Shown: positions 9,508-63,492 of the stretch, one piece after another
Position numbering within the stretch: position 1 is the stretch's first letter
Layout of the letters: every line of letters starts with the position of its first letter
Assembly (NCBI GenBank): GCA_036380735.1
Contig: DASVEE010000025.1
Span: forward strand, 3,041-67,040
Origin: Thermoanaerobaculia bacterium
Lineage (GTDB): Bacteria; Acidobacteriota; Thermoanaerobaculia; Gp7-AA8
Length of the DNA: 64,000 nucleotides
Direction: 5' to 3'
The notes under the pieces: generated by a model
Told to the model about the DNA's origin: nothing
Seen by the model: only the letters and a program-made list of their open reading frames with translations
The model's database searches: none
Position numbers and translations under genes: made by a program

Positions 9508-9606
9508 AAACGATAGGACCTATAGGACGGATGGGACAAATAGGACGAATGGGACTGAACGACGTCTGTCTGTCCTATAGGTCCTATTCGACCCATCGTC
9601 CCCCCC
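9508..9606. repeat. ATAGGAC-iterated palindromic element (copy 2)
   Basis: AACGATAGGACCTATAGGACGGATGGGACAAATAGGACGAATGGGAC - loop - GTCTGTCCTATAGGTCCTATTCGACCCATCGTCCCCCC; between convergent genes. Confidence 0.85.
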
Positions 9607-13645: not shown

Positions 13646-14171
13646 GCCACACACGTAGCGCCCTCGCTCCGACGGTATGACCTGGGCGCATCACCGGATT
13701 GCACCACTCGTCCGCGGCTGAACGCGCTGACAGTTCCAGGTGCGCCGTGTCGCCGTGAGTCGTAAGGCGACTGAGATCGCGGGATGAACAGCAATTCTCG
13801 TGTCCCCTGAGAATCGACTGCAACCGAGCCTTCTAGAACCGACCACAAAAACAAATAGAAGCTCGTCGATCGCATCGAGTGCGCGGCGTCTAGGCATTGT
13901 GGATTGGCGGCCGGCGCCTGTCCCGCCACAAAAAGGTCGAATCGGGAGCCCGGACGATGGACATCGAGCCATTCATTGCCATGAGACAGCTTGCCGTGGC
14001 AAAAGCAGATTTTCGAGTCTGCATTTAGCCCATGCGTCCTCGGTGCTATGCTACGCGCACACTTAATTCAACAATCACTGACCGGGCGGTTCTCAAGAGC
14101 TGATGTCCGGCTGCGGCTTTCAATTTCGACGGCACAGCCGCGCGTTTCCTCCGCCAGAGGAAGGAGAAGCA

Positions 14172-17100: not shown

Positions 17101-18023
17101 AGCCGGCTCGGGATGCAGGACGCTATGGTGTAGCCGCGGACTGGGCGGACAATTATGTCGATACTCGTGACCTCGTTAAATATCACCTCGGCCTCGACGG
17201 CACGCAGCTGTTTCTGACGAACGCCTACAACATCGATGTCACGCCGCCCGGCCCAGACAGTCCGAATGTCAACGCTTTAGCTCGTCACGGAAGGCCCTAC
17301 CGTTTTTATGGTCTATCGGTCGCCTCCTCGTTTGTTGGTGACGGCGCTCACGCGGCAGCCGATCCTATTGGCGGCGGCGGTGGCGTTGGATATCCTCTTT
17401 CTGTTGAAATGAGTCGGTCGCTGAGCTCTCTCGGTGCCACATACAAAAGAGGTGAAGGATGTTTAGTGACCGGCTCCTCCTGTATTCCGCAGGTAAATCC
17501 GGCCCGGCGGGAGCGGTTGGGTCCCGTGAAGGCTTTGCAAACCGTCGTCTCCGCGGCCAGAGCTGTGACCTGGATTGCGAAACCTGGAAGTTCATTTCTG
17601 TTTGATCTCATCAAAATCGGTTTCGTATCCATGCTGTCTGAAGCTCCGAACGTAAGCACCGCAGTTGCTTCAGCAGTGCCGACGGAAGCACCTGCCCACA
17701 TCGTCATCGACGTGGTGACCACCCAGCCAGTCGATAAGTTGCGCTTCAACCGGCGCTTCGGTGCCACAGGCGAAGGCTTTTTGCGCGTCTTTGTCGGAGG
17801 GATGTTGGTGCGCGAAACGGACCAACGTCATGTCGCAGTCGGTTTGGCGGAGGTGGAGGAGATCTATATCGGCGGCGCAGCCGGTACGTTGCCGCCCGGG
17901 ACTCACCGCATCGTCTTTCGACTGGATGGTTTCGGCACGCGCGCCAGCGGGGTGGAAATTACCGGAGTCGAGTTGGGTCTGACCTCTGAATCGACGGCTC
18001 GTCGTCGAGCCGTGGGCCACTGA
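14172..18023 (+). CDS. secreted subtilisin-like (S8) serine peptidase fused to a C-terminal alpha/beta-hydrolase (lipase/esterase-like) domain
   Basis: ATG after GAGGAAGGAGAAG SD; signal peptide MKKWTPFFCGLAIILLSSTGAAAG; S8 triad in order D (VAILDLGFSG), H (HGLAVAEIVHD), S (GTSAAAPHVAG); central Ig/FN3-like region; C-terminal ~450 aa with VLITHGW oxyanion-type motif and nucleophile elbow IAHSAGS. The listed ORF starts upstream at 14103. Confidence 0.85.
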   Translation: MKKWTPFFCGLAIILLSSTGAAAGEMDRSQNPPSSRELSVALETKPSKLTSEFQELARLDRWRGRAAAQSFAAERGLSFSGATVKVVIQFVPGSVVAVKSHLHTLGATVETVATDLILARVPVSALQALASADEVKIVRRPHAPTPFGATSEGVNAMGAIAWHAAGRKGAGVKVAILDLGFSGYQSLMGSEIPNIPPTRIKSFSGDIGGGTEHGLAVAEIVHDVAPEAELYLANFSNDVELELAVQWLIDQRVHVINASWGYPCGGPLDGTGPTNALVRRAAEAGILWISAAGNFAQRHWSAAFNDSNADGWHNFASNEEGNTVFLNSGDELRVCVAWDDWTKRDQDFDLYVWNSNGAIVGSSTNSQGGPDTHDPSELVTFTASATGNYHIGVKRDRGTRNPVLHLYAYPPGTECAIEAVAAAHDPMPSDFLGELRQFRDHVLAPSRFGRVLIESYYRHSAELRRTLLSHPLLAIEAVALMRASRPAVQSVLLSRRGVSSDGGFVISEAYASRVDRFLDRVSEVASPTLGADLAEFRAKAALSAAAGQSVQQYWESLLRQPPILNGAADATYPDPGYLRYATLSTSVVPPADSAYSLTVGAINWATGVLEEFSSRGPTADGRVKPEIAATDGVCTATYGNCGMGGFAGTSAAAPHVAGAAALVQQVYPLRTPAEIRNFLTGRAVDVSPAGADNQTGAGRLALGAMTDVDVLPAPSLLGPLGTNAPIWPTFHWSEIDGAASYRLMVATSATALPTDPLTQACSGCLVNTTVSTSYFTPAVPLLAASTYYFQVQGRTAVKNGLWARATFVTSVSPELTRPERTNLIEESGPWPAAAGKAVLITHGWRASAAPKVSGEQTWVKEMAEKMCGRLSADRVVTSVGAGALTKMCQAQGWDVWVMDWSARADTGLPWSAVANATAMGEAVATNLITKNYTHLHLIAHSAGSNLIDSATRRLKLWTAQENRPGINIHETFLDAYEPARDAGRYGVAADWADNYVDTRDLVKYHLGLDGTQLFLTNAYNIDVTPPGPDSPNVNALARHGRPYRFYGLSVASSFVGDGAHAAADPIGGGGGVGYPLSVEMSRSLSSLGATYKRGEGCLVTGSSCIPQVNPARRERLGPVKALQTVVSAARAVTWIAKPGSSFLFDLIKIGFVSMLSEAPNVSTAVASAVPTEAPAHIVIDVVTTQPVDKLRFNRRFGATGEGFLRVFVGGMLVRETDQRHVAVGLAEVEEIYIGGAAGTLPPGTHRIVFRLDGFGTRASGVEITGVELGLTSESTARRRAVGH

Positions 18024-20911: not shown

Positions 20912-21247
20912 GGGGACGATGGGACCTATAGGACGAATAGGACCCATGGGACGGATAGGACGTCGGGGCGCGGACAGGGTGTGTCGGGGCGCGGACAGGG
21001 TGTGTCGGGCCTCCGACAGGGTGTGTCGGGCGTCCGACAGGGTGTGTCGGGCCTCCGACAAGGTGTGTCGGGCCTCGGACAGGGTATGTCGGGCGTCCGA
21101 CAGGGTGTGTCGGGCCTCCGACAGGGTATGTCGGGGCGCGGACGCGGTGCGTCGCAGGCCCGGCACGAACGGAACTTACAGGACGTGCACTCCGCTCCGC
21201 GGAGCCATTCGTCCCATAGGTCCCATTCGTCCCATTCGTCCTATCTA
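20912..21247. repeat. composite ATAGGAC-family element carrying an internal 21-bp tandem array
   Basis: Left arm GGGACGATGGGACCTATAGGACGAATAGGACCCATGGGACGGATAGGAC (20912-20962), right arm CCATTCGTCCCATAGGTCCCATTCGTCCCATTCGTCCTATC (21205-21247); about 190 bp between them is a tandem array. Confidence 0.85.
20965..21152. repeat. tandem array, about 9 copies of 21-bp unit GACAGGGTGTGTCGGGCCTCC
   Basis: Direct reading: CGGACAGGGTGTGTCGGGGCG / CGGACAGGGTGTGTCGGGCCTC / CGACAGGGTGTGTCGGGCGTC ...; each unit contains the mini-palindrome GTCGGGCCTCCGAC. No unique spacers, so not CRISPR. Confidence 0.85.
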
Positions 21248-23818
21248 ATGATGTGAATACGGCGTCTGCAGCGGCGCCACCTGGACCACGGTCATCATGC
21301 CGCGGTCTTCGTGCGCCAGGATGTGGCAGTGGATGACGTAGTAGCCGGAGTAGTCGACGAAGCGGCTGCGCAGCTTGAAGTGCCCCGGGATCTGCACCAC
21401 CGTCGCCCCCTGGCTGTCGACGAACGTGCGGCCGGACGGCATCGGGAAGACGTCCCACCAGATGCGGTTGTTCGGCGGCACGGTGGCGCCGCACGGCTGC
21501 CAGGTCTTCGAATCGTTCGGATCCAGCAGGCACTGGCCGGGACGCACGTTCGTGGGATCGACCGTGTACAGCGGCATCGCGGCGACGTACGTCGAGGGCG
21601 TCGTGACCGGCTTCTTGTTGCCCGCCACCGCGTCCATGGTCAGCTCCGTATCGCTGACGATCGACATCACCATCCCCGGCGCCATGGCTCCGCCGCTGGT
21701 GCTGACGCCATTGATCCAGATCCAGTCGCCGACCTGGAAGTCTTTGGTGAACGCGGTGCCGACACCGGTCACCGTCGATGTATTCGCTGTCGGCGTTGCC
21801 ATCACGACCGTCACCGTGCCGGCGCCGTCGGCCGTCGAGGCCACGGCGTTCGGGTCGAACACCTCCGTCACCTGGAACGGGTTGATGTGGATGTGGAACG
21901 GATGGGAGATCTGGTTGCCCGTCGCCGGCGGATACGTCTTGTTGACGATCTTCCACTCCTCGGCCTTGTTCAGGCCGACCACGACGCCGAGCTCCCCGTC
22001 GAACTGCTTGCCGTCGATGGTCTGCTTCGACGCCGGCGGCGGACCGGGAGGAATCGCCGACGAAGCGAAGACGATGGTCTTCGTCCCCGTCACGTCCTCG
22101 TCCTTGATGTCGGCGAGGAACGCGGGGAAGGTGGGGGCGTTGGGCATGAACTGCATCGCCGGCCCGTCGGGCGTCACGTTCACGGTGAGGAGCGTCGCCG
22201 GCGCAACCGCGGGCTTGGCCGGCGGCCGGTCGCTCGCATCGACCGTGTTGTAGACGAGCACCGCGTACGAGTTGTTGCCGTTCGGCACGTATTTCGGCGC
22301 CTTCACCAGCAGGTCGGCGCGGTTGCCCGAGGCGAGGAGGAACGCGCGGTTGAAATTGCTCGAGCTGCCGTAGTTCGCGTCGTTGAACTGCACGCCGTCC
22401 TGTGCGAGCTGCTTCCACTGCAGCCCCGTCGCCGGCGCGGCGAAGTACACGCCGCCGCGGCCGGACGTGTTGGCGATGCGCCACATCTGCACCGAGCCGC
22501 CCGCCATTTCCAGCGTCGGCTGCAGCGCGCCGTTCACCGAGTACTGCGGACCCGGCCCGCCGCCTCCGCCGAACAGCAGTCCGGGCGTCGTGCCGAGCTG
22601 CTGGATCACCATCGTCTTCGCGTTCGACGAGCGCGTCCACTTCACACCGTTGACGTTGCCGTAGTAGGCATTGATGGCGTCGTCGTAGTCGCCCTCGATG
22701 ATCAGCGCGCCGGTCATGCCGTTCAGGACGTTGATCGTCGTGGAGCCGTGCTTGTGCGCGTGGTACCAGTGCGTGCCGGGCGCCTGTCCCATTACCAGCG
22801 GACGTTTCGGCGCCGCCGCCTCATCCACCTCGGCCGATCCCGCTCCGTCCGTGTTCGGCGTGTGCACGTGTGCGGACGCGGCCCCGGGGATGATTGTCGT
22901 CGCCGTCGACGCCGTGTACAGCGGAAGCTGGAAGCAGTACGGATACGCCGCGACGTAGTACTGCGGCCAGTTCCCCTGCTCAATCAGCTCGTTGTTCGCC
23001 TTGAACCATGCCGGCGCGTGCGTCTCCACCGGATCCATCAGCGTCTTCTGCAGCCCCGCCGACAGATCGCTCCAGCGGCGCGGCCACATGGCCGTCGGGC
23101 CGGCCGCCTTCAGCTTCTGCGTGCACTGCGCGAAGAACTTCGCGAACTCGTCCTTCACCATCGCCTCGGTGATCAGCGGCTCGTTGCTGCCGCCCGTCTT
23201 GCGCGGCGCGGGGCGGATGTTGAGGAACACGTTGTCCGCCGTGGTGTTCGGGCTCGTGTGCGTCCCGTGGTAGTGCATGTTCGTGTAGACCGAGCCGGCG
23301 AAGCAGTCGGGATACTGGTCGGCGCCCGCGCCGGTGCCGGGATAGGAGGAGGTCTCGTCGCACTTGCCGTCGTCGACCCCGGGGAACTTGTTGGCGTCGA
23401 TGACGTTGAGGAACGTCAGCGTCACGATGTCGCCGGCGCGCGCGCGCAGCGTCGGCCCCGGCCGCGGATCGGTGATCGTCGACGACGGCGGATTCCAGCT
23501 CGACGGAGCGGTGGCGCGGTACGCGCGCACCCACTGCGGGTAGCACGGCCCGCCGACGGTGGTCGTCATGCGCACCTGCTCCGAGACCGTGTACAGCGTG
23601 CCGTTGAGCACACCGTCCTTCGTCACGATCTCGTCGAGCACCGGCAGCGCCTGCGTCGGCGTGCACTTGATCGTGTTCGTCGGAGTGGTGGCCTTCGCGC
23701 CCGTTCCGCTTCCGCGTTGTGCCATGGCCGGCGGCACCAGCAGCGCCGTCGCGAGCAGCAGGAGCGACAGCCTGCGTGTAATTGCGTGAATGGAAGAAGG
23801 CGATTTGCGCACGTTCAT
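21245..23818 (-). CDS. multicopper oxidase (three-domain laccase-like, 857 aa, secreted)
   Basis: Start MNVRKSPSSIHAITRRLSLLLLATALLVPPAMAQ (signal peptide); four copper-ligand motifs: HYHGTH, HWYHAHKHG, HPFHIHINPF, HCHILAHEDRGMM. The longer listed ORF (to 24076) has an Arg-rich non-native N-extension and is rejected. Confidence 0.85.
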   Translation of the reverse strand: MNVRKSPSSIHAITRRLSLLLLATALLVPPAMAQRGSGTGAKATTPTNTIKCTPTQALPVLDEIVTKDGVLNGTLYTVSEQVRMTTTVGGPCYPQWVRAYRATAPSSWNPPSSTITDPRPGPTLRARAGDIVTLTFLNVIDANKFPGVDDGKCDETSSYPGTGAGADQYPDCFAGSVYTNMHYHGTHTSPNTTADNVFLNIRPAPRKTGGSNEPLITEAMVKDEFAKFFAQCTQKLKAAGPTAMWPRRWSDLSAGLQKTLMDPVETHAPAWFKANNELIEQGNWPQYYVAAYPYCFQLPLYTASTATTIIPGAASAHVHTPNTDGAGSAEVDEAAAPKRPLVMGQAPGTHWYHAHKHGSTTINVLNGMTGALIIEGDYDDAINAYYGNVNGVKWTRSSNAKTMVIQQLGTTPGLLFGGGGGPGPQYSVNGALQPTLEMAGGSVQMWRIANTSGRGGVYFAAPATGLQWKQLAQDGVQFNDANYGSSSNFNRAFLLASGNRADLLVKAPKYVPNGNNSYAVLVYNTVDASDRPPAKPAVAPATLLTVNVTPDGPAMQFMPNAPTFPAFLADIKDEDVTGTKTIVFASSAIPPGPPPASKQTIDGKQFDGELGVVVGLNKAEEWKIVNKTYPPATGNQISHPFHIHINPFQVTEVFDPNAVASTADGAGTVTVVMATPTANTSTVTGVGTAFTKDFQVGDWIWINGVSTSGGAMAPGMVMSIVSDTELTMDAVAGNKKPVTTPSTYVAAMPLYTVDPTNVRPGQCLLDPNDSKTWQPCGATVPPNNRIWWDVFPMPSGRTFVDSQGATVVQIPGHFKLRSRFVDYSGYYVIHCHILAHEDRGMMTVVQVAPLQTPYSHH

Positions 23819-23838
23819 CTCTGCTCTCCGTTGCTGCG

Positions 23839-24204
23839 TCACGCGATCAGCTCGATCGTCCCGTGCTCGCCGGGATGCACCGTGCAGGCGTAGTAGATGG
23901 TCACCGGAAACTCGACGGTCGCCGGCGGTGTGGGGGAGGCGTCCGCCGTCGCGGTGACGTACGCATTCAGCGACGGCTTCCACGGCTCGATCGCCTTCGT
24001 GATGCTGGCGCCGGGATTCTCGAAGTTCGCGTCGGTGATCGAGAGATCGTGCGGCTCCTCGGTCTGGTTGCTCCACGACACGACATCGCCGGTGGAGGCC
24101 ACCAGTGACTCCGATGGCTCCGTATCCGGGTCGTGGTAAACGTCAGGAACGAAGGTGTTGGGACTCCCTGGATTGATGTTGATACACCACTGCTGTCCGG
24201 CCAT
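23839..24204 (-). CDS. small cupredoxin-like (blue-copper) protein
   Basis: 121 aa; GGAGG SD; C-terminal YYACTVHPGEHGTIEL resembles the type-1 copper Cys-His loop with an upstream His (EEPHDLS). 20 nt upstream of the MCO gene. Confidence 0.5.
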   Translation of the reverse strand: MAGQQWCININPGSPNTFVPDVYHDPDTEPSESLVASTGDVVSWSNQTEEPHDLSITDANFENPGASITKAIEPWKPSLNAYVTATADASPTPPATVEFPVTIYYACTVHPGEHGTIELIA

Positions 24205-24291
24205 GCCGCGCCTCCAATACTTCCCGTTTTAGTGGATGGATCCCACCGAGGAGAGTCGCCGGAGGGGAGTTTCCCTACCCTGAATGATGGG

Positions 24292-24375
24292 TCGATAGGA
24301 CGCAGCCTCAAACCCGCGGAGCGCCTGGTCCCATCCGTCCTATTCGTCCCATTCGTCCTATCCGTCCTATCGTCA
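24292..24375. repeat. ATAGGAC-family element (short left arm)
   Basis: GTCGATAGGACG - ~25-nt loop - GTCCCATCCGTCCTATTCGTCCCATTCGTCCTATCCGTCCTATCGTCA; the terminal TCA is the TGA stop of the gene at 24373..25662. Confidence 0.75.
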
Positions 24376-25662
24376 TCCCCCGCCCATGCGGATGCCGCAC
24401 TGTTTCAGCAGGTCGAACGGCGGCACGCCTCCGGCGAAGATGAAGACGTAGTCGTTGGGCAGGTCGCGCTCCGCGTCGCCGAGGCGCAGCGTCACGCGGT
24501 CGGGGTGGATCACAACCGGCTGCGAGCCAAACAGCGTCTGAATTTTCCCGCCGGCGACCAGCTTCGCGAACGCATCCTCATTCTTCTTCTTGATCCGCAC
24601 CAGCTTGTCGCGCCGGTAGGACAGCGTCACCACGTTGCCCGGCTGCAGCGCCAGGCCGATGGCGGCTTCGACGGCGCTGTCGCCGCCGCCGACGACGAGG
24701 ACGCGCTGCTGGCGGTAGCTCTCCGCGTCCATGAGGCGGTACATGACCTTCGGCAGCTCTTCCCCCGCGACGTCGAGCCGCCGCGGCGTACCGCGCCGCC
24801 CGAGCGCCAGCACCACCGCGCGCGCGCGATGCTCGCCGCGTGCGCTGCGCACGACGAACGCGTCGCCGTCGCGCGCGATCGACTCGACCGGCTCGCCAAA
24901 GCGCACGTCCAGCCCCTTCTGCGCGACGAGCGTCTCGAACAGCTCGAGCAGGCTTTCCTTCGCGTACTCCTCGCGGTCGAGCCGTACGCCGGCCGCGATC
25001 TCCACCGGCTGCAGCAGCACCATCTTGCGCCGCGGGTAGTGGAGGAGGCTGCCGCCGAGGGAGGCTTCCTTCTCCAGCACGACGCAGCGCAGTCCGCGCG
25101 CCGCTGCTTCCGCCGCCGCGCTGAGACCCGAGGGCCCGGCGCCGACCACGAGCACGTCGAGCGCATCGCCGTCGCCCCTGGCGATGTTGCGCATCACCTC
25201 GCGTCCCTGCTTCACCGCGTTCCTTACCAGAGAGAGGCCGCCGAGCTCACCGACGATGTACATCCCCGGGACGGTCGTCTCGTAGTCGTCGGTCAGCAGC
25301 GGGACGTCGGCGCGCGACTTGAGATCGCCGAGACCGACTTCGATCGCGCCGACGGGGCACGCTTCTTCGCAGCGCGCGTGACCGACGCAGCGCAGTCCGT
25401 TCACCACCACCGCCGTCCCGCCGACGATGCCGAGGACGTCGCCTTCAGGGCAGGCGCGCACGCAGGCGCCGCAGCCGATGCAGTGCGCAGGATCGATGAA
25501 CGGGAACTGCGCGTTCGGCTTGTCGATCCCGAGCTGCGCCGCCTCCGTCTTCCGCGCGCGGTCGTGCTTCAGCCGTCGCCGGAACTGCAGCACATACGGC
25601 ACCACGACGCCCGCCGAAATCGCCGCGGCGGCGCCCCACACCAGGAGTGCCTCGGAGATCAT
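24373..25662 (-). CDS. membrane-anchored 2x[4Fe-4S] ferredoxin domain fused to FAD/NAD(P)-dependent pyridine-nucleotide-disulfide oxidoreductase
   Basis: 429 aa; N-terminal TM; CIGCGACVRACP and CVGHARCEEACP cluster motifs; Rossmann GXGXXG VLVVGAGPSGLSAA and a second VLVVGGGDSAVEAA (thioredoxin-reductase-like). Confidence 0.8.
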   Translation of the reverse strand: MISEALLVWGAAAAISAGVVVPYVLQFRRRLKHDRARKTEAAQLGIDKPNAQFPFIDPAHCIGCGACVRACPEGDVLGIVGGTAVVVNGLRCVGHARCEEACPVGAIEVGLGDLKSRADVPLLTDDYETTVPGMYIVGELGGLSLVRNAVKQGREVMRNIARGDGDALDVLVVGAGPSGLSAAAEAAARGLRCVVLEKEASLGGSLLHYPRRKMVLLQPVEIAAGVRLDREEYAKESLLELFETLVAQKGLDVRFGEPVESIARDGDAFVVRSARGEHRARAVVLALGRRGTPRRLDVAGEELPKVMYRLMDAESYRQQRVLVVGGGDSAVEAAIGLALQPGNVVTLSYRRDKLVRIKKKNEDAFAKLVAGGKIQTLFGSQPVVIHPDRVTLRLGDAERDLPNDYVFIFAGGVPPFDLLKQCGIRMGGG

Positions 25663-25668
25663 CCCGCC

Positions 25669-27159
25669 TCAGAAACGGTAGCCGACGCCGACGTTAATCC
25701 GGTGCCCCGCCACAGCGTCGCCGCCGGTCAGCTCCACCTCGGCCCGCGTGAACACGTCGTACGGCAGCTCGATCCACAGGCCGGCGCGAATCCACGAGGT
25801 GATGGTGACGTCGTCGAGCGCCGCTTCGTCGACGGCGATGACGCCGGCCGTCAGCTCCGCCATGTGACCGCCGCCGAAGGAGCGGGCGAAGCGGGTGTTC
25901 GCGAAGACACCGTCGTTGAGCGGCGAGGAGAAGCCGGTGGCGCTGATGCTGGCGCCGACGCCGAAGAAGAGGCTCGGGTGCGACAGGCCGGCGGTGGCGG
26001 AGAACGTGACGTCGTCCTCACCGTTCGCCAGCACGCTGTCCTCTTCGCCCGTGCGGACGCCGCCGCCGACGAAGTAGTTCGGATGCCGCAGCATGACGCG
26101 GAAGCCCTGGCGCAGCTCGTCTTCGATGAGCTGATCGGTCGTGCGCAGGTCATCGTCGATGCCGGGCTGGATCCGCTCGTAGGAGACGCTCAGCGAGGTG
26201 TTCGCGCCGATGCGGCCGATGGCGGTGAGGATCGTGTCGACGCCGCGCTCCTGGTCCGCTTCGCCGGAGATTCCCGCGCGGCCGTGGGCGAAGAAGGAGA
26301 AGCGCTCGCTCGGCGAGTAGCGGCCGTCGACGGCGACGAACGAGCTTTCGTCCGTGTCGTTCTGCGTCTGTACGCCGGCGACGGTGAGCTCCGCCATCGG
26401 CACCGGATTGACGCGCACGAACGCGCCGTACTTCGTCGTCGACGTGTCGGGGGCGAGCTCGGTGATGTTGGGGCGGAAGCCGTAGAACGCGCCCGCCTCG
26501 AAGCCGTCGATGATGCGAACGCGCGCGAGCGCACCGTCGAGATAGCCGAGGCCGATGGCGGGCGTGTTGCCGATGCGTCCGGCTTCGACGGCTACGCGCC
26601 CGTCGAACGGTTCGTAGAGGAGGGACAGCTCATAGAGCCGGTGGCGATCCTGCCCGGCTTCCTGACCGACGCGGAGTCTCGTGCGCACCATGAGCGGTAG
26701 CCCGGCGACGTTGCGTGCGCGGGCGCTGACGCGCGCCAGCGTCCGGCCGTCGCCGCGATCCGTGGTGCCGTGGTCGAGCGAGACGTTGCCGCTGAGCGAG
26801 GTACTCGCGTAACGGCGTCCGCCGCCGAGGCCGGGCATCGCGGGAGGCGGCGGTGGCGGCTGGGCCGCGACCGGAGTGCCGACGCGCCGCACCGCATCGC
26901 CGGCCTGCACCGCCGTCGTCTCGGAGACGATGCGCGCGGACGCCGACTGCTCGGCCGCGAACTGCACCTCGATGACGGCGATGACGTTCCCTCCGCGCAG
27001 CACCTCGAAGCGGTCGCCGACGTTGATCCCCGCGGCGCGGCCGGCGGTGATGTAGATCGTGTTCTCCGTCCGATACCGCACGGCCAACTGCCCCTCGGCC
27101 GCCGCAACTCCGAGGAGCACGATCACCGCGGCGAGCACCGCGCGCGCGGCGGTTTTCAT
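25669..27159 (-). CDS. outer-membrane beta-barrel protein (porin-like), candidate conduit partner of adjacent multihaem cytochromes
   Basis: Start MKTAARAVLAAVIVLLGVAAAEG (signal peptide); 497 aa rich in alternating beta-strand pattern; C-terminal VGVGYRF OMP signature. Start overlaps the upstream cytochrome gene by 4 nt. The listed ORF start 27327 is rejected. Confidence 0.75.
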   Translation of the reverse strand: MKTAARAVLAAVIVLLGVAAAEGQLAVRYRTENTIYITAGRAAGINVGDRFEVLRGGNVIAVIEVQFAAEQSASARIVSETTAVQAGDAVRRVGTPVAAQPPPPPPAMPGLGGGRRYASTSLSGNVSLDHGTTDRGDGRTLARVSARARNVAGLPLMVRTRLRVGQEAGQDRHRLYELSLLYEPFDGRVAVEAGRIGNTPAIGLGYLDGALARVRIIDGFEAGAFYGFRPNITELAPDTSTTKYGAFVRVNPVPMAELTVAGVQTQNDTDESSFVAVDGRYSPSERFSFFAHGRAGISGEADQERGVDTILTAIGRIGANTSLSVSYERIQPGIDDDLRTTDQLIEDELRQGFRVMLRHPNYFVGGGVRTGEEDSVLANGEDDVTFSATAGLSHPSLFFGVGASISATGFSSPLNDGVFANTRFARSFGGGHMAELTAGVIAVDEAALDDVTITSWIRAGLWIELPYDVFTRAEVELTGGDAVAGHRINVGVGYRF

Positions 27160-27965
27160 TCGCGTCCATCCGGATGGCACGAGCGGCAGGCGGTGCTCTC
27201 GTACCGGTAGTTGCGCACGTCGTCGTGCTCGTCGTCCATCTCGTCGCGGCGATGCTCGTGGCAGTTGATGCAGGAGAAGACGCGGAAGTTGTTCTCGTTC
27301 GTATGGCAGTCGTTGCACGAATCCCACGCGCCGCGATGCGGGCCGGAGAAGATCGGGAAGATCTGGTCGTGGTTCGGGAAGAACGCCCCCTCGAACGTGG
27401 CCGTCGAGTGGCAGGTCTCACATTGCCGCGGGAAGCCGGCGTGCGAGGGACGAGCGCGCGAGAGATCGTCGGCGTGACAGGCGATGCAATCGCGGCGGGC
27501 GCCGAAGAAGCGATCGGGCGACTGGGTGTGGCACTCCGCGCACTCGACGCTGACGTGTGCGCCGGTGAGGGGGAACAGCGCGCCGCTATGCACCTCGAGG
27601 ATGCGCGAGCGGTTATGCCAGCCGGTCGTGTCGTGGCAGCGCTCGCAGGCGAACCCGAGCTCCGCGCGATGCGGGTCCTTGTGACAGTCGGCGCAGGCGC
27701 TGCCGACGTGCGCGAAGCGGAGATCCTCGTGGCACCCGGTGCAGTTCACCCCCTTGTGCCCGAAGCGCAGGGGGAAGCCGGTGTGCTTCGCATGATCGAA
27801 GAGGAGGGGACGGCGCAACGAGGTCCAGCTCTCCGCGGTGTGGCAGTTCGAGCACTCCACCGCGATCGGCCCATGCGGATTCTCGACGCGCGGCTGGCTG
27901 ACCAGCCGCAGAGAGCCCGCCACCATGCAGGCGATCGTCAGCACCGCGAAAACGTAGGATTTCAC
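27156..27965 (-). CDS. decahaem c-type cytochrome (paired-CXXCH / c7-like repeats)
   Basis: 269 aa with signal peptide and 10 CXXCH motifs (CSNCH, CTGCH, CADCH, CERCH, CAECH, CIACH, CETCH, CNDCH, CINCH, CRSCH) spaced with conserved His. Confidence 0.85.
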   Translation of the reverse strand: MKSYVFAVLTIACMVAGSLRLVSQPRVENPHGPIAVECSNCHTAESWTSLRRPLLFDHAKHTGFPLRFGHKGVNCTGCHEDLRFAHVGSACADCHKDPHRAELGFACERCHDTTGWHNRSRILEVHSGALFPLTGAHVSVECAECHTQSPDRFFGARRDCIACHADDLSRARPSHAGFPRQCETCHSTATFEGAFFPNHDQIFPIFSGPHRGAWDSCNDCHTNENNFRVFSCINCHEHRRDEMDDEHDDVRNYRYESTACRSCHPDGRE

Positions 27966-28012
27966 GCTTGCGAAGGGGCTTGTGCAAACGGCGTGTCATG
28001 CCGGTAGGCAGC

Positions 28013-28145
28013 CATAGGACGAATAGGACCGATAGGACCGATGGGACGAATAGGACCTATAGGACGGATAGGACCTATCGGTCTCGGGTGGGCGGGGCCC
28101 CATTCGTCCTATAGGTCCTATAGGTCCTATTCGTCCTATCGTTCC
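28013..28145. repeat. ATAGGAC-iterated palindromic element (copy inside the cytochrome operon)
   Basis: Seven forward units CCATAGGACGAATAGGACCGATAGGACCGATGGGACGAATAGGACCTATAGGACGGATAGGACCTATCGG - loop - CCCATTCGTCCTATAGGTCCTATAGGTCCTATTCGTCCTATCGTTCC. Right arm overlaps the 3-prime end of the 23-haem cytochrome gene. Confidence 0.9.
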
Positions 28146-29773
28146 TTTGTCACGTGACACGCCGCGCACGCACGCGGCACGCCCTTGAACCCGGTCTTGT
28201 GGCACTCCGCGCAGCGGACCCGTGCGTGCGCCCCTTCCAGCGGAAAGCCGGTCTTCGTGTGATCGAACGCCACGCGCCCCCACGCCTCCAGGCGATGGCA
28301 GGTCGTGCAGGTGCCGAAGCGCGCGGTCTCGCCGCGGTGCGGGTCGCGGTGGCAGTCGGTGCAGGCGGCCGAGGAGAGGCGGAACTGCACGACGTTCTGC
28401 TTCTTCACGTGGCAGGCGTTGCACGGCACCGCCAGGTGCGCCCCGGCGAGCGGGAACTTCGTGCGCTGATGCTGCTCCACGCCGAAGGTCGAGGGGAGGA
28501 AGCGCGTCACGCTGTGACAGTCGGCGCAGTCGCCCGTCATCTGCCCGGCATGCACGTCGCGATGGCAACTGCCGCAGCGGTCGAAGCGCGAGAACTTCAG
28601 CGCCCGCCCTGTGGTGTGACACGACTCGCACTTGGCCGTGCGATGCGCGCCGCGCAGCGGGAAGCGGGTGGCGTCGTGGTCGAAGCCCGACACCTTGGCG
28701 AAGCCGGCGGTCGAGTGGCAGCTTTCGCACGCTTTGCCGAGGCGGCCCTTGTGTGGATCGGTGTGACAGCCGTTGCAGGTCATCGGCACGCCGCGCAGCT
28801 TCCCGCCGGTGTGGCACTGCGCACAACGCACGGCCGTGTGGCGGCCGGTCAGAGGGAAGCGCGTGCGGGTGTGATCGAAGTTCGCTACGGCGCGGAACGT
28901 GGTCGTGGAGTGACAGCGCTCGCACGATTTGCCGAGACGCCCTTCGTGCGGATCGCGGTGACAGGAGGTGCACGTCTTCGGCGTCCCCTGGAACTTACCG
29001 GCGCGGTGACACTCGGAGCATTGCGCCGTCTTGTGCGCGCCCGTCAGCGGGAAGCCGGTCTTCGCGTGATCGAAGTTCGCTGTCGCCTGCACGCCTTTCC
29101 ACGCGGCGGTGGAGTGGCATTGCGTGCACGTCGGGCCGAAGCGCCCCGCGTGCGGGTCCTTGTGGCAATCGGTGCAGCGCTGGAAGGCGACGCCGCGGAA
29201 GGCGGGCGTCGGGTGGCATTTGGCGCAGGCGACGTTCACATGCTTCCCGGTGAGCGGGAAGCGCGCTTTCGCATGATCGAACTTCGGCGCCGGCTTCCAC
29301 GCCGTCATGGCGTGGCACGACGTGCAGGAGGGGAGCTGCCCCTTGTGCGGATCGGTGTGGCACGACGTGCACGATTGCGAGAGCCCGAGGAACGAGCGTG
29401 TCTTGTGGCAGCTCGCGCACTTGGCTTTCGCGTGCGCTCCTTCGAGCGGGAAGCCGGTCTGGCGGTGATCGAACTTCGCCGGGTCCCAATGGATCAGACG
29501 GAAGGCGCGCCCGTGATGCTCGTTGTGGCAGCGCTCGCACGTGCGGTACTCCGGCCGCGCGTGCAGCCCCTTGCCGGCCTGGATGCGCGCGCGCAGCGCG
29601 GTGTGGCAGGTGAGGCACTTGGCCGGACTCACGCCTTGCTTCGCCTCATGGCACTTGAGGCAGTTCGCCGCCCCTTCCAGCTTCGCGTGCGCTTCGCTGA
29701 GCGGACCGGGGGAGATCTGCGCGTGCGCCGCCAGCGCTCCCCACATCGCTAGCAGCAGGAGCCAGCGTCTCAT
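28136..29773 (-). CDS. large multihaem c-type cytochrome (about 23 CXXCH motifs in 546 aa)
   Basis: Start MRRWLLLLAMWGALAAHAQ (signal peptide), overlapping the upstream membrane-protein stop by 4 nt (ATGA). 23 CXXCH motifs counted, embedded in repeated FDH..TGFPL.GAH.. paired-CXXCH modules. The listed 781-aa ORF includes a non-native upstream extension. Confidence 0.85.
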   Translation of the reverse strand: MRRWLLLLAMWGALAAHAQISPGPLSEAHAKLEGAANCLKCHEAKQGVSPAKCLTCHTALRARIQAGKGLHARPEYRTCERCHNEHHGRAFRLIHWDPAKFDHRQTGFPLEGAHAKAKCASCHKTRSFLGLSQSCTSCHTDPHKGQLPSCTSCHAMTAWKPAPKFDHAKARFPLTGKHVNVACAKCHPTPAFRGVAFQRCTDCHKDPHAGRFGPTCTQCHSTAAWKGVQATANFDHAKTGFPLTGAHKTAQCSECHRAGKFQGTPKTCTSCHRDPHEGRLGKSCERCHSTTTFRAVANFDHTRTRFPLTGRHTAVRCAQCHTGGKLRGVPMTCNGCHTDPHKGRLGKACESCHSTAGFAKVSGFDHDATRFPLRGAHRTAKCESCHTTGRALKFSRFDRCGSCHRDVHAGQMTGDCADCHSVTRFLPSTFGVEQHQRTKFPLAGAHLAVPCNACHVKKQNVVQFRLSSAACTDCHRDPHRGETARFGTCTTCHRLEAWGRVAFDHTKTGFPLEGAHARVRCAECHKTGFKGVPRACAACHVTKER

Positions 29774-30557
29774 CCGAAGCCGTATCCGGTGACCGTGGCC
29801 ACGGCGATGTGCACGATCAGGAAGAGGTACATGATGATGGCGAACGGCTTGTGGAAGATGTGCCAGTGGTGGAAGATCGCCTGCATGCGGTGCCAGCGGA
29901 CGATGCGGCGGTGCAGCCGCGCCTTCCGCTCGATGACGGCGACGAGCTCGCGCCCGCCGTGCTGCCGCTCGAAGGCGCGCAGTTGCGAGCGCCGCTGCCA
30001 GGTGCCGGGCGTCGCGGCGATCGTCTCCAGCTCCGCGAGCCGCTCCTCCGGCATGCCGAGGCGGCGGAGCTCCGCGGAGAGCTCGCCGCTCTCGCGCTCC
30101 ACGTCGGCCAGCGTCCGCTCGTCGCCGGCGCGCGTGCGGGGGATCTGTAAATAGAGGTAGCGCCCCAGCACCCCGGAGAGCGCCACGGCGATCATCGACC
30201 AGAAACTGAGCGCCACCAGTCCCTGCACCTTGAACGAGCTGTGCAGGATGATCAGCAGCGGCCCGATGACCCCGCAGAAGATGTGGAAGTCGAGCCAGAT
30301 GCTCAGCGGCCCCGCCTTCCGCAACGGCCGTACGCGCTTGCGCACGGAGTAGAGCAGCATCACCGTCATCAGCCCCGCGCCGATGATCCCGAAGGCGCGT
30401 CCGAGCGTCCCCGCCGGCTTCAGCGACCAGAACTGCGGATGATGCGGCCGCTCGATCAAAGGCGTCCGGTAGTAATCCCACCCCTCGGTCAGGTAATGCG
30501 CCAGCGCCGCAAACGCGACGGCATACAGCAGCGCAAGAACCACGCGATGGGGCCGCA
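29770..30557 (-). CDS. integral membrane protein (about 5 TM) co-operonic with multihaem cytochromes; start uncertain
   Basis: Hydrophobic helices (VVLALLYAVAFAALAHYL, IIGAGLMTVMLLY, IFCGVIGPLLIILH, LSFWSMIAVALSGVLG, FAIIMYLFLIVHIAVA), His-rich C-terminus (HRMQAIFHHWHIFHKPF). The listed start 30633 lies inside a repeat element; probable GTG start near 30557. Family not recognised. Confidence 0.6.
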
Positions 30558-30592
30558 CTGGTGGCGGACTATGCCACTGGCGGGCCAGGGGG

Positions 30593-30766
30593 AACCGATA
30601 GGACAGATGGGACCGATGGGACCTATGGGACATGGGACCAATGGGACCTATAGGACCTATAGGCCTGCGGACCCTGGCACTTCGTGGGTGGAAGGGGGCC
30701 TACCTATGGGTCCCATCGGTCCCATCGGTCCCATAGGTCCCATTTCCCATCGGTCCCATTCATCCA
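30593..30766. repeat. ATGGGAC/ATAGGAC-iterated palindromic element
   Basis: AACCGATAGGACAGATGGGACCGATGGGACCTATGGGACATGGGACCAATGGGACCTATAGGACCTATAGG - ~38-nt loop - CCTATGGGTCCCATCGGTCCCATCGGTCCCATAGGTCCCATTTCCCATCGGTCCCATTCATCC; in a divergent intergenic region. Confidence 0.9.
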
Positions 30767-30915: not shown

Positions 30916-32622
30916 ATGTCGAAAGTGCTGTCGTCCTTTGTCCTTGCCGCAATGGTCGCTGTTTCCCCGTCTCTCGTCGCCGCGAACGGCAAAACCACCA
31001 TCGATCTGAGCTCCAAAGGCGCGCGCGTCCACCGGGCGGACGGCAACGCGCCGCTCACCCCGCCGTCGCGCGGCGCACGTGCCGATGCCGTGCGCGGCTT
31101 CCTCTCCCAGAAGGGACGCGGGCCGGCCGCACAGTCTCTGCACGCCGTCTCCGAGAACGCCCGCGGGCCCGTGACGCACCTCCGCTTCGAGCAGCGCGTC
31201 GCCGGTCTTCCGGTCTACGGGACCTACGTCAAGGCAGCGGTCGACGGGCAGGGGCGGCTGCGCAGCATCATCGAGAACATCGTCGACCCGGCGCCGATCG
31301 CTCCGGCCTCCATCAACGGTGATGAAGCCGTCGCGCGCGCGGTCGGCTTCCATCACCCGGCTCGTGCGGTGAACCCGGGCAGCGACTTCTGGTTCCGCAC
31401 GCCCGCCGCCTCGCGCGTCGCGGTGCCGCTGGCTGACGGCTCCCTCATCGAGGGCTACCTCGTCGAGACGTGGGAGAACGCGTCGAACAACCTGTGGCAC
31501 ACGGTCGTCGGCGGCGACGGCAGCATCGTCTACGCTGAGCTCCGCACCGCCTCCGACACGTACAAGATCTTCCCCAACCATCCGGGCGTGACGGCGCAGA
31601 CCGTCGTCACCGGGCCGGGCGCGGGTAACGCGCAGTCGCCGGTGGGCTGGGTCACGAACAACACGACGGTGGGCAACAACGTCGACGCCTACCTCGACCG
31701 CGACAACAACAACGCCGCGGACACGAACGGCCGTCCGGTCTCCTCGACCAAGACGTTCGAGTTCACCGCCGACATGACGCAGGCGCCGACGCTCGCCGTC
31801 AACCAGATGGCCGCGGTGTCGAACCTCTTCTACCTGAACAACGTCATCCACGACAAACTGTACCGGCACGGCTTCAACGAGGCGGCCGGCAACTTCCAGA
31901 CGAACAACTTCGGCAAAGGCGGCCTCGGGAACGACGCCGTGCTGGCCGAGGCGCAGGACGGCGGCGGGACGAACAACGCGAACTTCGCGACGCCCGCGGA
32001 CGGCAGCAAGCCGCGCATGCAGATGTACCTCTGGAACCGCTCCACGCCGAACCGCGACGGCGACTTCGACTCCGACATCGTCTGGCACGAGTACGGTCAC
32101 GGCCTCACGTGGCGCATGATCGGCACGATGAGCGGCCCGCTCGCCGGAGCGATTGGGGAAGGCATGAGCGACGTGCTCTCGCTCTACATCAACCGCAATG
32201 ACGTCGTGGGCGAGTATTCGTACAACGCGCCGGGCGGCATCCGCCGCTTCCCGTACACCAACTACCCCAACACGTTCAGCGACGTCGCCGGCTCGAGCGT
32301 GCACGCCGACGGCGAGATCTACGCCGCGACGATGTGGCGGCTGCTCGCTCTCTGGGAAGCGGCCGGCTACACGCAGGACCAGCTCTTCGACTACGTCATC
32401 GACGGCATGAACTACACGCCGGCGCGCCCGTCGTACGAAGACATGCGCGACGGCATCCTCGCGGCCGTGCCGACGGCGGCGCAGGACTGCATCGTGTGGA
32501 ACGCCTTCTCGCAGTTCGGCATCGGCCAGGGCGCCGACGGCCGCGTCACCTGCTACTTCGGCATCTTCTGCAGCGCGCCCGTGATCGTGGAATCGTTCAC
32601 CAAGCCGGCGACCTGCCTGTAG
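30916..32622 (+). CDS. secreted M36 (fungalysin-type) zinc metallopeptidase with FTP propeptide
   Basis: ATG after AGGAGG SD; signal peptide MSKVLSSFVLAAMVAVSPSLVAANG; HEXXH as VWHEYGHGLTWRM and downstream EGMSD; length and propeptide organisation of fungalysin family; TAG stop. The listed ORF start 30241 is rejected. Confidence 0.85.
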   Translation: MSKVLSSFVLAAMVAVSPSLVAANGKTTIDLSSKGARVHRADGNAPLTPPSRGARADAVRGFLSQKGRGPAAQSLHAVSENARGPVTHLRFEQRVAGLPVYGTYVKAAVDGQGRLRSIIENIVDPAPIAPASINGDEAVARAVGFHHPARAVNPGSDFWFRTPAASRVAVPLADGSLIEGYLVETWENASNNLWHTVVGGDGSIVYAELRTASDTYKIFPNHPGVTAQTVVTGPGAGNAQSPVGWVTNNTTVGNNVDAYLDRDNNNAADTNGRPVSSTKTFEFTADMTQAPTLAVNQMAAVSNLFYLNNVIHDKLYRHGFNEAAGNFQTNNFGKGGLGNDAVLAEAQDGGGTNNANFATPADGSKPRMQMYLWNRSTPNRDGDFDSDIVWHEYGHGLTWRMIGTMSGPLAGAIGEGMSDVLSLYINRNDVVGEYSYNAPGGIRRFPYTNYPNTFSDVAGSSVHADGEIYAATMWRLLALWEAAGYTQDQLFDYVIDGMNYTPARPSYEDMRDGILAAVPTAAQDCIVWNAFSQFGIGQGADGRVTCYFGIFCSAPVIVESFTKPATCL

Positions 32623-36940: not shown

Positions 36941-37061
36941 GGAATCGGACGAATCGGACAAATAGGACGTATAGGCGTGCGGACCCTGCGGCGTTGCTGC
37001 GGGTGGGTGCGGTCCTATCTGTCCCATTCGTGCTATTCGTCCCATAGGTCCTATCGTTCCC
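36941..37061. repeat. ATAGGAC-family element adjoining the 22-bp array
   Basis: GGAATCGGACGAATCGGACAAATAGGACGTATAGG - loop containing CCTGCGGCGTTGCTGCG - GGTCCTATCTGTCCCATTCGTGCTATTCGTCCCATAGGTCCTATCGTTCC. Confidence 0.85.
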
Positions 37062-40755: not shown

Positions 40756-40909
40756 GGCCAATGAACGGATAGGACCGATAGGACGAATAGGACCTATAGG
40801 ACGAATAGGACCTCTGACACTTCCGCGCGTGCCGGGCTGCGACCGTCGCGCAGCGGGGTGGGTGGGGTCCCATTCGTCCTATCGGTCCTATCTGTCCTAT
40901 CGTTCCCCC
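40752..40909. repeat. ATAGGAC-iterated palindromic element
   Basis: AATAGGGCCAATGAACGGATAGGACCGATAGGACGAATAGGACCTATAGGACGAATAGGACC - ~50-nt loop with internal CTGCGACCGTCGCGCAG palindrome - GTCCCATTCGTCCTATCGGTCCTATCTGTCCTATCGTTCC. Confidence 0.9.
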
Positions 40910-44038: not shown

Positions 44039-44142
44039 GACCGACGACGAATAGGACGATGGGACAAACCGCAGCCGTTAGCCGGCGTGCTGCTGTCCTA
44101 TAGGTCCTATTCGTCCTATTCGTCCCATTTGTCCTATCGTCA
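44027..44142. repeat. ATAGGAC-iterated palindromic element between convergent genes
   Basis: CAGGACGAATAGGACCGACGACGAATAGGACGATGGGAC - loop - GTCCTATAGGTCCTATTCGTCCTATTCGTCCCATTTGTCCTATCGTCA; left end supplies the TAG stop of the peroxidase gene, right end the TGA stop of the minus-strand M1-fusion gene. Confidence 0.9.
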
Positions 44143-63177: not shown

Positions 63178-63478
63178 AACGATAGGACGAATGGGACGGA
63201 TAGGACGAATGGGACGAATAGGACCGATGGGCAAACCTGGTGTCATCCCGAAGCCCCCGTATGGGGGCCGGGCGGGGGAGGGGGCTGAGGGATCTGTGTG
63301 GGGGAACGTGACACCACTTCTACGCCGCGATTCCCCCACACAGGTCCCTCACCGCCCTCCGCCGCCCACGCCCCCATACGGGCAGTTCGGGATGACACGC
63401 TTTATGCCTGTTGGACCTACTGTCTTTGTCCCATCCGTCCTATCCGTCCTATAGGTCCTATAGGTCCTATCGTCCCCC
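63178..63478. repeat. complex ATAGGAC-family element with nested internal palindromes
   Basis: Outer arms AACGATAGGACGAATGGGACGGATAGGACGAATGGGACGAATAGGACCGATGGG (63178-63231) and TTTGTCCCATCCGTCCTATCCGTCCTATAGGTCCTATAGGTCCTATCGTCCCCCC (63425-63478); inside, GTCATCCCGAAGCCCCCGTATGGGGGC pairs with GCCCCCATACGGGCAGTTCGGGATGAC, and CTGTGTGGGGG pairs with CCCCCACACAG. Confidence 0.85.
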
Positions 63479-63492
63479 CGTCGCTCTCCGCG

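Follow-up and report, generated by a model that had tools for sequence, protein, structure and literature searches.

The window analysed here is a stretch of 64,000 nucleotides from a Thermoanaerobaculia bacterium of the Acidobacteriota (contig DASVEE010000025.1, positions 3,041 to 67,040), with a G+C content of about 67%. Between positions 21245 and 30558, seven consecutive genes on the minus strand encode an inner-membrane protein (IMP), two multihaem c-type cytochromes, an outer-membrane β-barrel protein, an iron-sulfur flavoprotein, a small cupredoxin-like protein, and a large multicopper oxidase (MCO). It is proposed that these genes belong to two independent units. The five genes at 24373-30558 would encode a conduit resembling the PCC3 and PCC4 systems and crossing the whole envelope, and the two genes at 21245-24204 would form a separate cupredoxin-like/MCO module. 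We give this reading an even chance of being right. The observations that carry it are the gene content, order, and coupling, their conservation in related loci, the cofactor motifs, and the structural model of the barrel.

Gene organization

An earlier note on this DNA had described seven co-directional genes, and all the corresponding open reading frames (ORFs) were found at the positions claimed (Table 1). The recount of the haem motifs gave the same 23 and 10 CXXCH as before, and the cofactor and domain assignments were upheld by Pfam, NCBIfam, and motif scans, with an amendment to the flavoprotein described below. The tight spacing interrupted by two repeat-filled gaps was also confirmed. 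By ORF coordinates, ATGA overlaps join the genes of the IMP and of the 23-haem cytochrome, as well as those of the decahaem cytochrome and of the barrel protein. Between the barrel gene and that of the flavoprotein there are 6 nt. The small-protein gene is separated from that of the MCO by 20 nt, or overlaps it by 4 nt if the GTG start of the latter is used. The MCO in NCBI's model has 865 residues and gives a 100% match over its full length; as the sole in-frame start codon eight codons upstream is the GTG at 23842, we infer that NCBI's model starts there. For the barrel protein and the IMP, NCBI has one 100% identical entry each. The two bigger gaps measure 170 nt (27966-28135) and 168 nt (24205-24372) and both contain 9-nt-periodic TAGGACCNA repeats. 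No terminator consensus was found in either gap, and the hairpin at 27966-28135 has no T-tail. A promoter scan, which is uninformative for this phylum, found none in the region, and the Rfam scan of the window gave no match.

Table 1. Genes of the two units and the repeat element inserted between the cytochrome genes (positions in the window)
Feature	Position	Strand	Description
Inner-membrane protein (IMP)	29770-30558	minus	262 aa, five transmembrane helices
Large c-type cytochrome	28136-29773	minus	545 aa, 23 CXXCH, Sec signal peptide
Inserted palindromic repeat element	27966-28135		inverted arrays of 9-nt TAGGACCNA units, between cytochrome genes
Decahaem c-type cytochrome	27156-27965	minus	269 aa, 10 CXXCH, signal peptide
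Outer-membrane barrel protein	25669-27159	minus	496 aa, signal peptide
Fe-S flavoprotein	24373-25662	minus	429 aa, N-terminal transmembrane helix
Small cupredoxin-like protein	23839-24204	minus	121 aa
Multicopper oxidase (MCO)	21245-23818 (to 23842 with GTG start)	minus	857 aa from the ATG at 23818

Synteny of the cytochrome and copper genes

Related loci, designated here L001 and so on, were gathered with the barrel protein, using 58 homologues from a word-indexed search, a GTDB scan that yielded 18 species-representative loci, and look-ups of the encoding contigs. All seven proteins of the window were then run by tblastn against every related locus, and 24 of these contain the barrel. The IMP, the long cytochrome, the second cytochrome, the barrel, and the flavoprotein are all present in 18 of the 24, with barrel identities down to 29%. 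The hosts of the five-gene loci are Thermoanaerobaculia, Holophagales (L015), Vicinamibacteria (L023), and the organisms carrying L024 and L026, which are classified no deeper than Acidobacteriota or "bacterium". Most of these loci keep the gene order of the window; L008 is divided into two halves in divergent orientation, and a rearrangement is seen in L024. Four more loci are truncated by contig ends, yet retain the barrel and flavoprotein genes.

The coupling of the genes is conserved as well. In L001, the five genes are separated by nothing but 4-nt overlaps and one 1-nt gap, and the 4-nt overlap of the decahaem and barrel genes recurs in L001, L003, and L004 as their genes are called. The decahaem-then-barrel order is preserved in every co-linear locus, and the second cytochrome precedes the barrel in all informative loci, L008 included. 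The gap between the two cytochrome genes amounts to 45 nt in L003 and is absent in L001.

The copper genes are distributed differently. The small protein and the MCO were found by tblastn beside the cytochrome genes in none of the 24 barrel-containing loci. Only in L014 is there a remote oxidase (32% identity), encoded on the other strand some 8 kb upstream. In assembly GCA_035629865.1, the cytochrome unit (L003) and the MCO pair (L005) are on different contigs, and in all comparators the gene after that of the flavoprotein is not the small-protein gene. The small protein is encoded directly upstream of the MCO in three of three comparators; its coordinates are L006:7687-8004 and L007:7678-8004 in the two where the genes overlap by 4 nt. 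In L005:6605-12562 and L007:4671-10439, the pair follows a gene for a CarboxypepD_reg/Plug protein of about 990 residues resembling TonB-dependent receptors, which hints that the partner of the MCO may be an uptake system of the outer membrane and not the cytochromes. The sizes of the families are also far apart, with 2030 matches at E ≤ 0.001 for the MCO, mostly from Thermoanaerobaculia and other Acidobacteriota, versus 58 for the barrel in the same kind of search.

The two modules meet at the 168-nt gap, which contains a one-armed TAGGACCNA remnant and, ahead of the following gene, a GGAGG ribosome-binding site, and folds no better than shuffled sequence (z = 0.42). Because no related locus joins the two units, which are on separate contigs in GCA_035629865.1, and because the pair is conserved elsewhere, the copper pair is, judging from these comparisons, an independent two-gene module that adjoins the cytochrome operon only in this genome. 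The earlier note had claimed one seven-gene electron-transfer island and advised a synteny check in related genomes. The five cytochrome-unit genes move together and the copper pair does not, and the island is rejected on these grounds of synteny.

The inner-membrane protein

The IMP has five hydrophobic segments, which form five membrane-length helices in its AlphaFold2 (AF2) model. Invariant in 44 homologues are W88-x3-H92-x13-H106 on the third transmembrane helix (TM3), S128-G129-x2-G132 on TM4, and W232-x3-H236-x13-H250 on TM5. This signature is identical to that published for the IMPs of PCC3 and PCC4, which have about 300 residues and five transmembrane helices, with SGxxG on TM4 and W-x3-H-x13-H on TM3 and TM5 (He et al. 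2017, PMC5566968). All Pfam matches are below the cut-offs. The window protein matches DUF4405 with E = 0.036 (15 bits for a cut-off of 26.7) and Ferric_reduct with E = 0.43. The sub-threshold matches are consistent among the 44 homologues, with DUF4405 in all (best E = 5.5e-6), Ferric_reduct in 39, and Ni_hydr_CYTB (cytochrome b561) in 26. Purified DUF4405 proteins are known to contain haem b (PMC11334425).

Based on the five helices and on the invariance of the SGxxG and of the two W-x3-H-x13-H motifs, the IMP is predicted to carry electrons across the membrane by two b haems, as an IMP of the PCC3/PCC4 type. As the N-terminus and the loop after TM2 are basic, we infer from the positive-inside rule that the N-terminus is cytoplasmic and the C-terminus outside. 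This topology would put H92 and H236 close to the cytoplasm and H106 and H250 close to the periplasm, which is the classical layout for two stacked b haems.

The two cytochromes

Both cytochromes match the Pfam families Cytochrome_C7, c3_2, and CIII, the longer one with E = 5e-30 for Cytochrome_C7. With 23.7 residues per haem, this protein consists of seven triplets of haem motifs and two further motifs at regular spacing (about 15-20/15-20/26-40), and its 26 additional histidines appear sufficient for bis-His ligation. Against PDB sequences, the 23-haem profile matches HmcA (1.7e-7), nonahaem cytochrome c (5.6e-7), and the "cytochrome c family protein" of entry 3ov0 (1.8e-6), which we take to be the Geobacter dodecahaem cytochrome GSU1996. 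It also matches a chain of entry 6R2Q (Mtr complex), presumably MtrA. The mature N-terminus following the Sec signal is conserved as (I/L)SPG(P/K)LS. The number of haems in the long cytochrome is 22-23 for the loci of Thermoanaerobaculia and Holophagales, and 20 for three of the four loci that diverge most; the length of the protein ranges from about 510 to 656 residues while the number of haems stays at 20-23. GSU1996 extends roughly 1 nm per haem. If it scales likewise, the 23-haem cytochrome is expected to span about 23 nm, which would be long enough to bridge the periplasm.

The second cytochrome has 26.9 residues per haem and 14 further histidines in the window, where it is proposed to be the partner of the barrel. 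Its haems number 10 in the loci of Thermoanaerobaculia and Holophagales, compared with about 22 in L023 and about 28 in L008, the last two numbers being raw CXXCH counts in hand-picked ORFs. The decahaem homologues have signals of the signal peptidase I type, in which a Cys of the h-region is not conserved. The decahaem profile has no significant match among PDB sequences, and NCBIfam gives a single stray match to HmcA (E = 0.002). Within residues 240-269 (window 27156-27248), an acidic stretch R-x-E-M-D-D-E-H-D-D-V-x-x-Y precedes the last haem motif. Most of its positions are invariant in 14 homologues, and it could serve to bind a metal or to dock a partner.

The outer-membrane barrel

The barrel protein consists of a signal peptide, a periplasmic β-sandwich (residues 25-92), a disordered Pro-rich linker, and the barrel itself (residues 121-495). 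Its AF2 model has 22 strands, with a predicted local distance difference test (pLDDT) score of 82.8 and a C-terminal end ...GYRF. Together with the preserved order, the overlapping genes, and the match to PCC3/PCC4, this confident model sustains the idea that a multihaem cytochrome and an outer-membrane barrel form a porin-cytochrome-type conduit. The suggested kinship with MtrB or Cyc2 was not borne out. The profile of the barrel family has no significant match among PDB sequences, including those of the Mtr complex (6R2Q), and none at E ≤ 10. A Cyc2-like fused cytochrome-porin is ruled out, as the protein contains no CXXCH, CX3CH, or CX4CH motif.

Profile scans of the barrel protein found no match to the Plug domain, the TonB box, or nutrient-porin families. 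A TonB-dependent receptor, which would have an N-terminal Plug and a TonB box, was rejected on this ground. The possibility raised previously that the barrel is a nutrient porin with unrelated synteny elsewhere disagrees with its conserved gene neighbourhood. Although unannotated, the family is large, as an exhaustive profile search recovered 2113 clusters (50% identity) at E ≤ 1e-3, 445 of them at E ≤ 1e-30. The β-sandwich contains many invariant residues and weakly matches FlgT_C and the secretin-associated TsaP; its role may lie in the docking of the 23-haem cytochrome or in peptidoglycan binding.

The iron-sulfur flavoprotein

The flavoprotein starts with a transmembrane helix followed by a basic FRRR segment, and continues with a two-cluster ferredoxin domain (residues 55-110) and a thioredoxin reductase (TrxR)/YpdA-type FAD and NAD(P)H domain (residues 165-429). 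Pfam identifies Pyr_redox_3 (1.4e-39) and Fer4_10 (1e-10), as well as Fer4 and Pyr_redox_2. The best PDB match is YpdA/Bdr (7a7b, 1e-26), followed by TrxR and TrxR-type ferredoxin-NADP reductases. The transmembrane anchor and the FRRR segment are kept in 21 homologues. As the N-terminal helix is followed by this conserved segment, the rest of the protein would be cytoplasmic, with the Fe-S domain as the part closest to the anchor.

Invariant residues comprise C61/C64/C67/C71-P, C92/H95/C98/C102-P, GGGDSA, and S348-Y349-R350...R356. The second ferredoxin motif (residues 92-102, window 25357-25389) thus reads C-x2-H-x2-C-x3-CP, where His95 replaces the second Cys, and it is invariant in the 21 homologues down to 50% identity. 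The previous assignment to a 2x[4Fe-4S]/FAD oxidoreductase therefore holds for the membrane-anchored Fe-S and FAD domains, but the set of ligands consists of seven Cys and one His instead of eight Cys. The site of His95 is expected from the motif to be a His-ligated [4Fe-4S] or [3Fe-4S] cluster. In [NiFe]-hydrogenases, the His-ligated distal cluster is the electron exit site. Motifs of the SYRR...R type bind NADPH in TrxR-fold enzymes, and the one here resembles the site for the 2'-phosphate of NADPH in thioredoxin reductases.

A role as a disulfide reductase like TrxR or YpdA (Bdr) was ruled out, as there is neither a CxxC nor an active-site Cys. The flavin domain contains only C193 and C422, and its glycine motif is GAGPSG, not the GGGPCG of YpdA. 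The NCBIfam models of the disulfide reductase type give a score of 154.6 versus a cut-off of 339.9.

In L024, a trio without barrel, consisting of an IMP, a multihaem cytochrome, and an Fe-S flavoprotein (L024:66-3975), is located directly upstream of the full five-gene set (L024:4300-12912). The flavoprotein is therefore tied to the IMP, and the trio suggests that the inner-membrane module can work by itself.

The copper proteins

The earlier identification of a large MCO was corroborated. Cu-oxidase_2 (56.5 bits) and Cu-oxidase_3 (28 bits) both score above the Pfam cut-offs, and all four copper motifs are present: HYH (182), HWYHAH (350), HPFHIH (639), and HCHILAHEDRGM (830; HCHxxxHxxxxM), the last including the Met axial ligand. 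The nearest PDB entries are Thermus-type laccases (about 1e-13, with partial coverage), and large insertions are found relative to three-domain laccases. The protein has a twin-arginine-like signal, ITRRLSLLL.

The small protein has no match in Pfam. A profile built with four homologues matches amicyanin over the whole domain (E = 6.8e-4 to 7e-3). H52, C107, and H110 are invariant, and the position of the axial ligand is occupied by H, H, I, and R in the four homologues, where no Met aligns. These features are those of a divergent cupredoxin-like protein. None of the four homologues has a signal peptide. The N-terminus is conserved (MAGQxW..I, FVPDVY), and the gene without signal peptide (23839-24204) stands ahead of that of the MCO with its twin-arginine translocation (Tat)-like signal (23716-23818). 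The small protein may be exported with the MCO by Tat hitch-hiking, or it may be a cytoplasmic copper-handling partner.

Comparison with known systems

PCC3 is reported with 21-27 haems in the periplasmic cytochrome (median 21; 22-39 residues per haem) and, in Gallionellaceae, 10-35 in the other cytochrome (PMC5566968, PMC9900912). The five-gene unit shares with PCC3 the signature of the IMP, a haem-dense periplasmic cytochrome (23 haems here), a second cytochrome of variable haem number (10 to about 28 here), and a β-barrel. It differs in being hosted by Acidobacteriota instead of Proteobacteria, in the order of the genes, and in the conserved additional gene for the Fe-S flavoprotein. The barrel has 22 strands, whereas "up to 42 transmembrane regions" are given for PCC3, and it has an extra FlgT_C-like periplasmic domain. 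One cytochrome of PCC3 is predicted to be extracellular, whereas the second cytochrome here bears no sign of it. The unit best matches PCC3 by the defining features of the published description, as a PCC3-like system rather than as a proven member of the family. The likeness to PCC4 subgroup II includes the same signature of the IMP, cytochromes of the periplasmic type only, one of them with 10 haems, a porin, and a gene for an Fe-S protein upstream of the IMP gene (PMC5566968). In contrast, PCC4 has three small cytochromes (4, 5, and 10 haems) instead of 23 and 10 haems, and the Fe-S protein of subgroup II is a pfam13247-type ferredoxin, for which no flavin or NAD(P)H domain is reported.

As in MtrAB, MtoAB, and PioAB, the gene of the decahaem directly precedes that of the barrel, and as in MtoAB and PioAB there is no surface lipoprotein cytochrome. 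The working principle proposed here, a chain of haems threaded through a barrel, is also that of these systems. However, no sequence relation was detected for either the barrel or the decahaem, and the link to the quinone pool is provided by CymA-type proteins in these systems instead of a di-haem b IMP. The MtrB barrel (6R2Q structure) has 26 strands, versus 22 here. Membership in the MtrB and MtrA families was rejected, as the barrel has no match at E ≤ 10 and the decahaem profile none to 6r2q_A at E ≤ 1. The Geobacter OmbB-OmaB-OmcB conduit comprises a periplasmic octahaem cytochrome and a dodecahaem lipoprotein cytochrome. The 23 and 10 haems and the missing lipobox do not fit this arrangement, and there is no NCBIfam match.

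The dehydrogenase of the five-gene unit is a separate TrxR-fold protein with an Fe-S domain, unlike the fused FNR-type domain of the eukaryotic and bacterial NOX, FRE, and STEAP enzymes, which have a ferric reductase domain. Moreover, the IMP has five helices instead of six, the acceptor would be a chain of cytochromes, and no Pfam cut-off is reached. Hmc and Tmc, transmembrane redox complexes of sulfate reducers, resemble the unit in combining a periplasmic multihaem cytochrome c, a membrane cytochrome b, and a cytoplasmic Fe-S protein, and the best PDB match of the 23-haem profile is HmcA, as given above. The cytoplasmic subunit of Hmc and Tmc is HdrD-like with a CCG domain, and these complexes are not known to have an outer-membrane part. 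The Pfam scan of the window proteins found no CCG domain.

No description of this exact five-gene cluster in Acidobacteriota was found in the literature. Other acidobacterial clusters for extracellular electron transfer, described in 2020 and 2026, resemble Mtr, Ext, or Omc and differ from the five-gene unit, and a 2026 preprint on peat describes other acidobacterial architectures, in which the modelled cytochromes have 8-13 haems. The novel elements are the host phylum, the barrel of 22 strands, whose sequence is unrelated to that of MtrB, and the conserved Fe-S flavoprotein of the NADPH type in the cytoplasm.

Proposed electron path and alternatives

In the proposed mechanism, the membrane-tethered cytoplasmic flavoprotein would oxidize NAD(P)H at its FAD and pass the electrons to the two Fe-S clusters, the second of which is a plausible exit site because it would be His-ligated. 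The clusters would reduce the five-helix IMP, where two b haems bound by the two H-x13-H pairs would carry the electrons across the inner membrane. The 23-haem cytochrome, with its c7-like triplets, would take the electrons from the IMP, bridge the periplasm, and hand them over to the decahaem located in or at the 22-strand barrel of the outer membrane. From there they would reach an acceptor outside the cell, for example Fe(III), Mn(IV), quinones of humic matter, or possibly O2. The insertion of the decahaem into the barrel is deduced from the analogy with MtrAB, and from the consideration that a 22-strand barrel without plug needs an occupant. Haem b binding by the IMP, the contacts between the proteins, the span of the long cytochrome, the direction of the flow, and the nature of the acceptor are likewise deductions. 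Outward flow is favoured, because inward flow to NAD(P)+ is uphill in potential and against the membrane potential. By itself, outward flow would not conserve energy; it would serve the disposal of electrons or the reductive mobilization of Fe or Mn, as in eukaryotic FRE reductases.

Extending this scheme, the five genes could encode a hard-wired, quinone-independent conduit from NAD(P)H to the cell surface, whose cofactors would be one FAD, two Fe-S clusters, two haems of type b, and 33 of type c. Such a conduit, widespread in soil Acidobacteriota, would correspond to a bacterial NOX or FRE extended over three compartments, and it would supply a cytoplasmic partner and a direction of flow for the IMPs of PCC3 and PCC4. 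This proposal is tentative, and we regard it as possible although on the unlikely side. Several points weigh against the proposed mechanism as a whole. The best structural match of the barrel is the barrel of FhuA, followed by substrate-specific porins, and the insertion of a cytochrome is taken from analogy only. No conserved lipobox or other sign of surface exposure was seen in either cytochrome. L022 alone has the cytochromes and the barrel without IMP or flavoprotein nearby. All the carriers found are uncultured metagenome-assembled genomes (MAGs). A quinone site in the IMP is possible, and in the proposal of He et al. (PMC5566968), the IMP and quinones exchange electrons, the flow being inward in iron oxidizers. 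PCC3 itself was still described as functionally unverified in 2025.

The alternative most in keeping with the published model is a PCC3-like conduit wired inward, where the IMP would trade electrons with the pool of quinones, the donors would be Fe(II), Mn(II), reduced humics, or minerals, and the flavoprotein would be an accessory acting as a cytoplasmic sink or as a regulator of the b haems. PCC3 and PCC4 are found in iron oxidizers and are modelled as uptake routes to the quinone pool (PMC5566968), and the IMP component of one PCC3 copy is upregulated during iron oxidation by Sideroxydans CL21. The sub-threshold matches of the IMP family include the quinone-reactive Ni_hydr_CYTB, and the decahaem and barrel without surface lipoprotein cytochrome resemble MtoAB and PioAB of iron oxidizers. 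However, a quinone pool as partner would hardly account for the conservation of an Fe-S flavoprotein of the NADPH type that is tethered to the membrane, and electrons reaching NAD(P)+ would have to move uphill and against the inside-negative membrane potential. In addition, the hosts look like MAGs of soil heterotrophs rather than known lithotrophic iron oxidizers, and the neighbouring genes encode proteases, transporters, and β-lactamase-like proteins. Inward wiring is judged unlikely.

It is still less probable that the barrel is an ordinary outer-membrane protein for transport or anchoring, and that the rest of the operon is a redox system of the inner membrane and periplasm, such as an electron store or a reductase of soluble substrates. 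The resemblance of the barrel to FhuA and substrate-specific porins would fit this explanation, as would the lack of a surface-localization signal in the cytochromes, the barrel-less trios of IMP, cytochrome, and flavoprotein, and the many porin-less pairs of IMP and cytochrome listed by He et al. (PMC5566968). Yet the barrel gene overlaps that of the decahaem in the window and in three other loci and follows the second cytochrome in every informative one, the profile scans recognize no Plug, TonB box, or nutrient porin, and a 22-strand barrel without plug would be an open hole unless filled. As for a cooperation of all seven genes in the extracellular oxidation or reduction of metals, it is considered very improbable. 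The genes are co-directional, a mere 168 nt without terminator-like site separates the flavoprotein and small-protein genes, and both units handle electrons outside the cytoplasm. Against this stand the absence of any related locus joining the units, their separate contigs in GCA_035629865.1, the conserved receptor-like partner of the MCO pair in L005 and L007, the unequal sizes of the MCO and barrel families, and the mobile-repeat remnant and own ribosome-binding site within the gap. The combination of cytochromes and copper oxidase is best regarded as a chance adjacency and should not be passed on as a metal-oxidation island. The reading retained here is that of an outward conduit of five genes next to an independent copper module.

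Repeat elements and surrounding genes

The element inserted between the cytochrome genes folds as one long hairpin (-88.8 kcal/mol, z = -9.8). It belongs to a family of 9-nt TAGGACCNA units in inverted arrays, with 43 matches in the window versus 0 expected. The elements are intergenic and are located at 803-876, 9514-9586, 20929-20953, 24327-24342, 28015-28138, 30599-30742, 37038-37053, 40770-40899, 44094-44118, and 63445-63582. Their behaviour is that of REP- or MITE-type elements, and their translation as ORFs yields spurious "GPIGPI/SYRSY" peptides. A different tandem array, with 9.2 copies of the partly palindromic 21-nt unit GTCGGGGCGCCGACAGGGTGT, occupies positions 20962-21154. It sits between the stop codon of the MCO and a convergent gene for an HTH_26 regulator, and is flanked by the 9-nt repeat elements.

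The genes around the operon are those of proteases, transporters, and β-lactamase-like proteins. Secreted proteases are abundant nearby, with an M36 fungalysin (30934-32622) and a protein with an M1 domain (37138-40755). The sole stretch of lower G+C content (60.6% versus about 67%) is the gene of a 1306-residue S8 subtilase with a PPC domain (14103-18023); an rRNA operon in this 14-18 kb stretch was thereby ruled out.

Significance

Acidobacteriota are among the most abundant soil bacteria, and little is known about how they trade electrons with humic matter and iron minerals. The prediction of PCC3-type clusters goes back to 2017, and their role and the electron supply of their IMP are still putative. 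The retention of the flavoprotein through rearrangements and its presence in the barrel-less trio lead to a concrete proposal, open to testing, on how the chain ends in the cytoplasm and which way the electrons flow. If the proposal is true, these organisms would have a route for electron disposal or reductive metal mobilization that bypasses the quinone pool, and models of their fermentation balance, of iron cycling, and of humic reduction would change.

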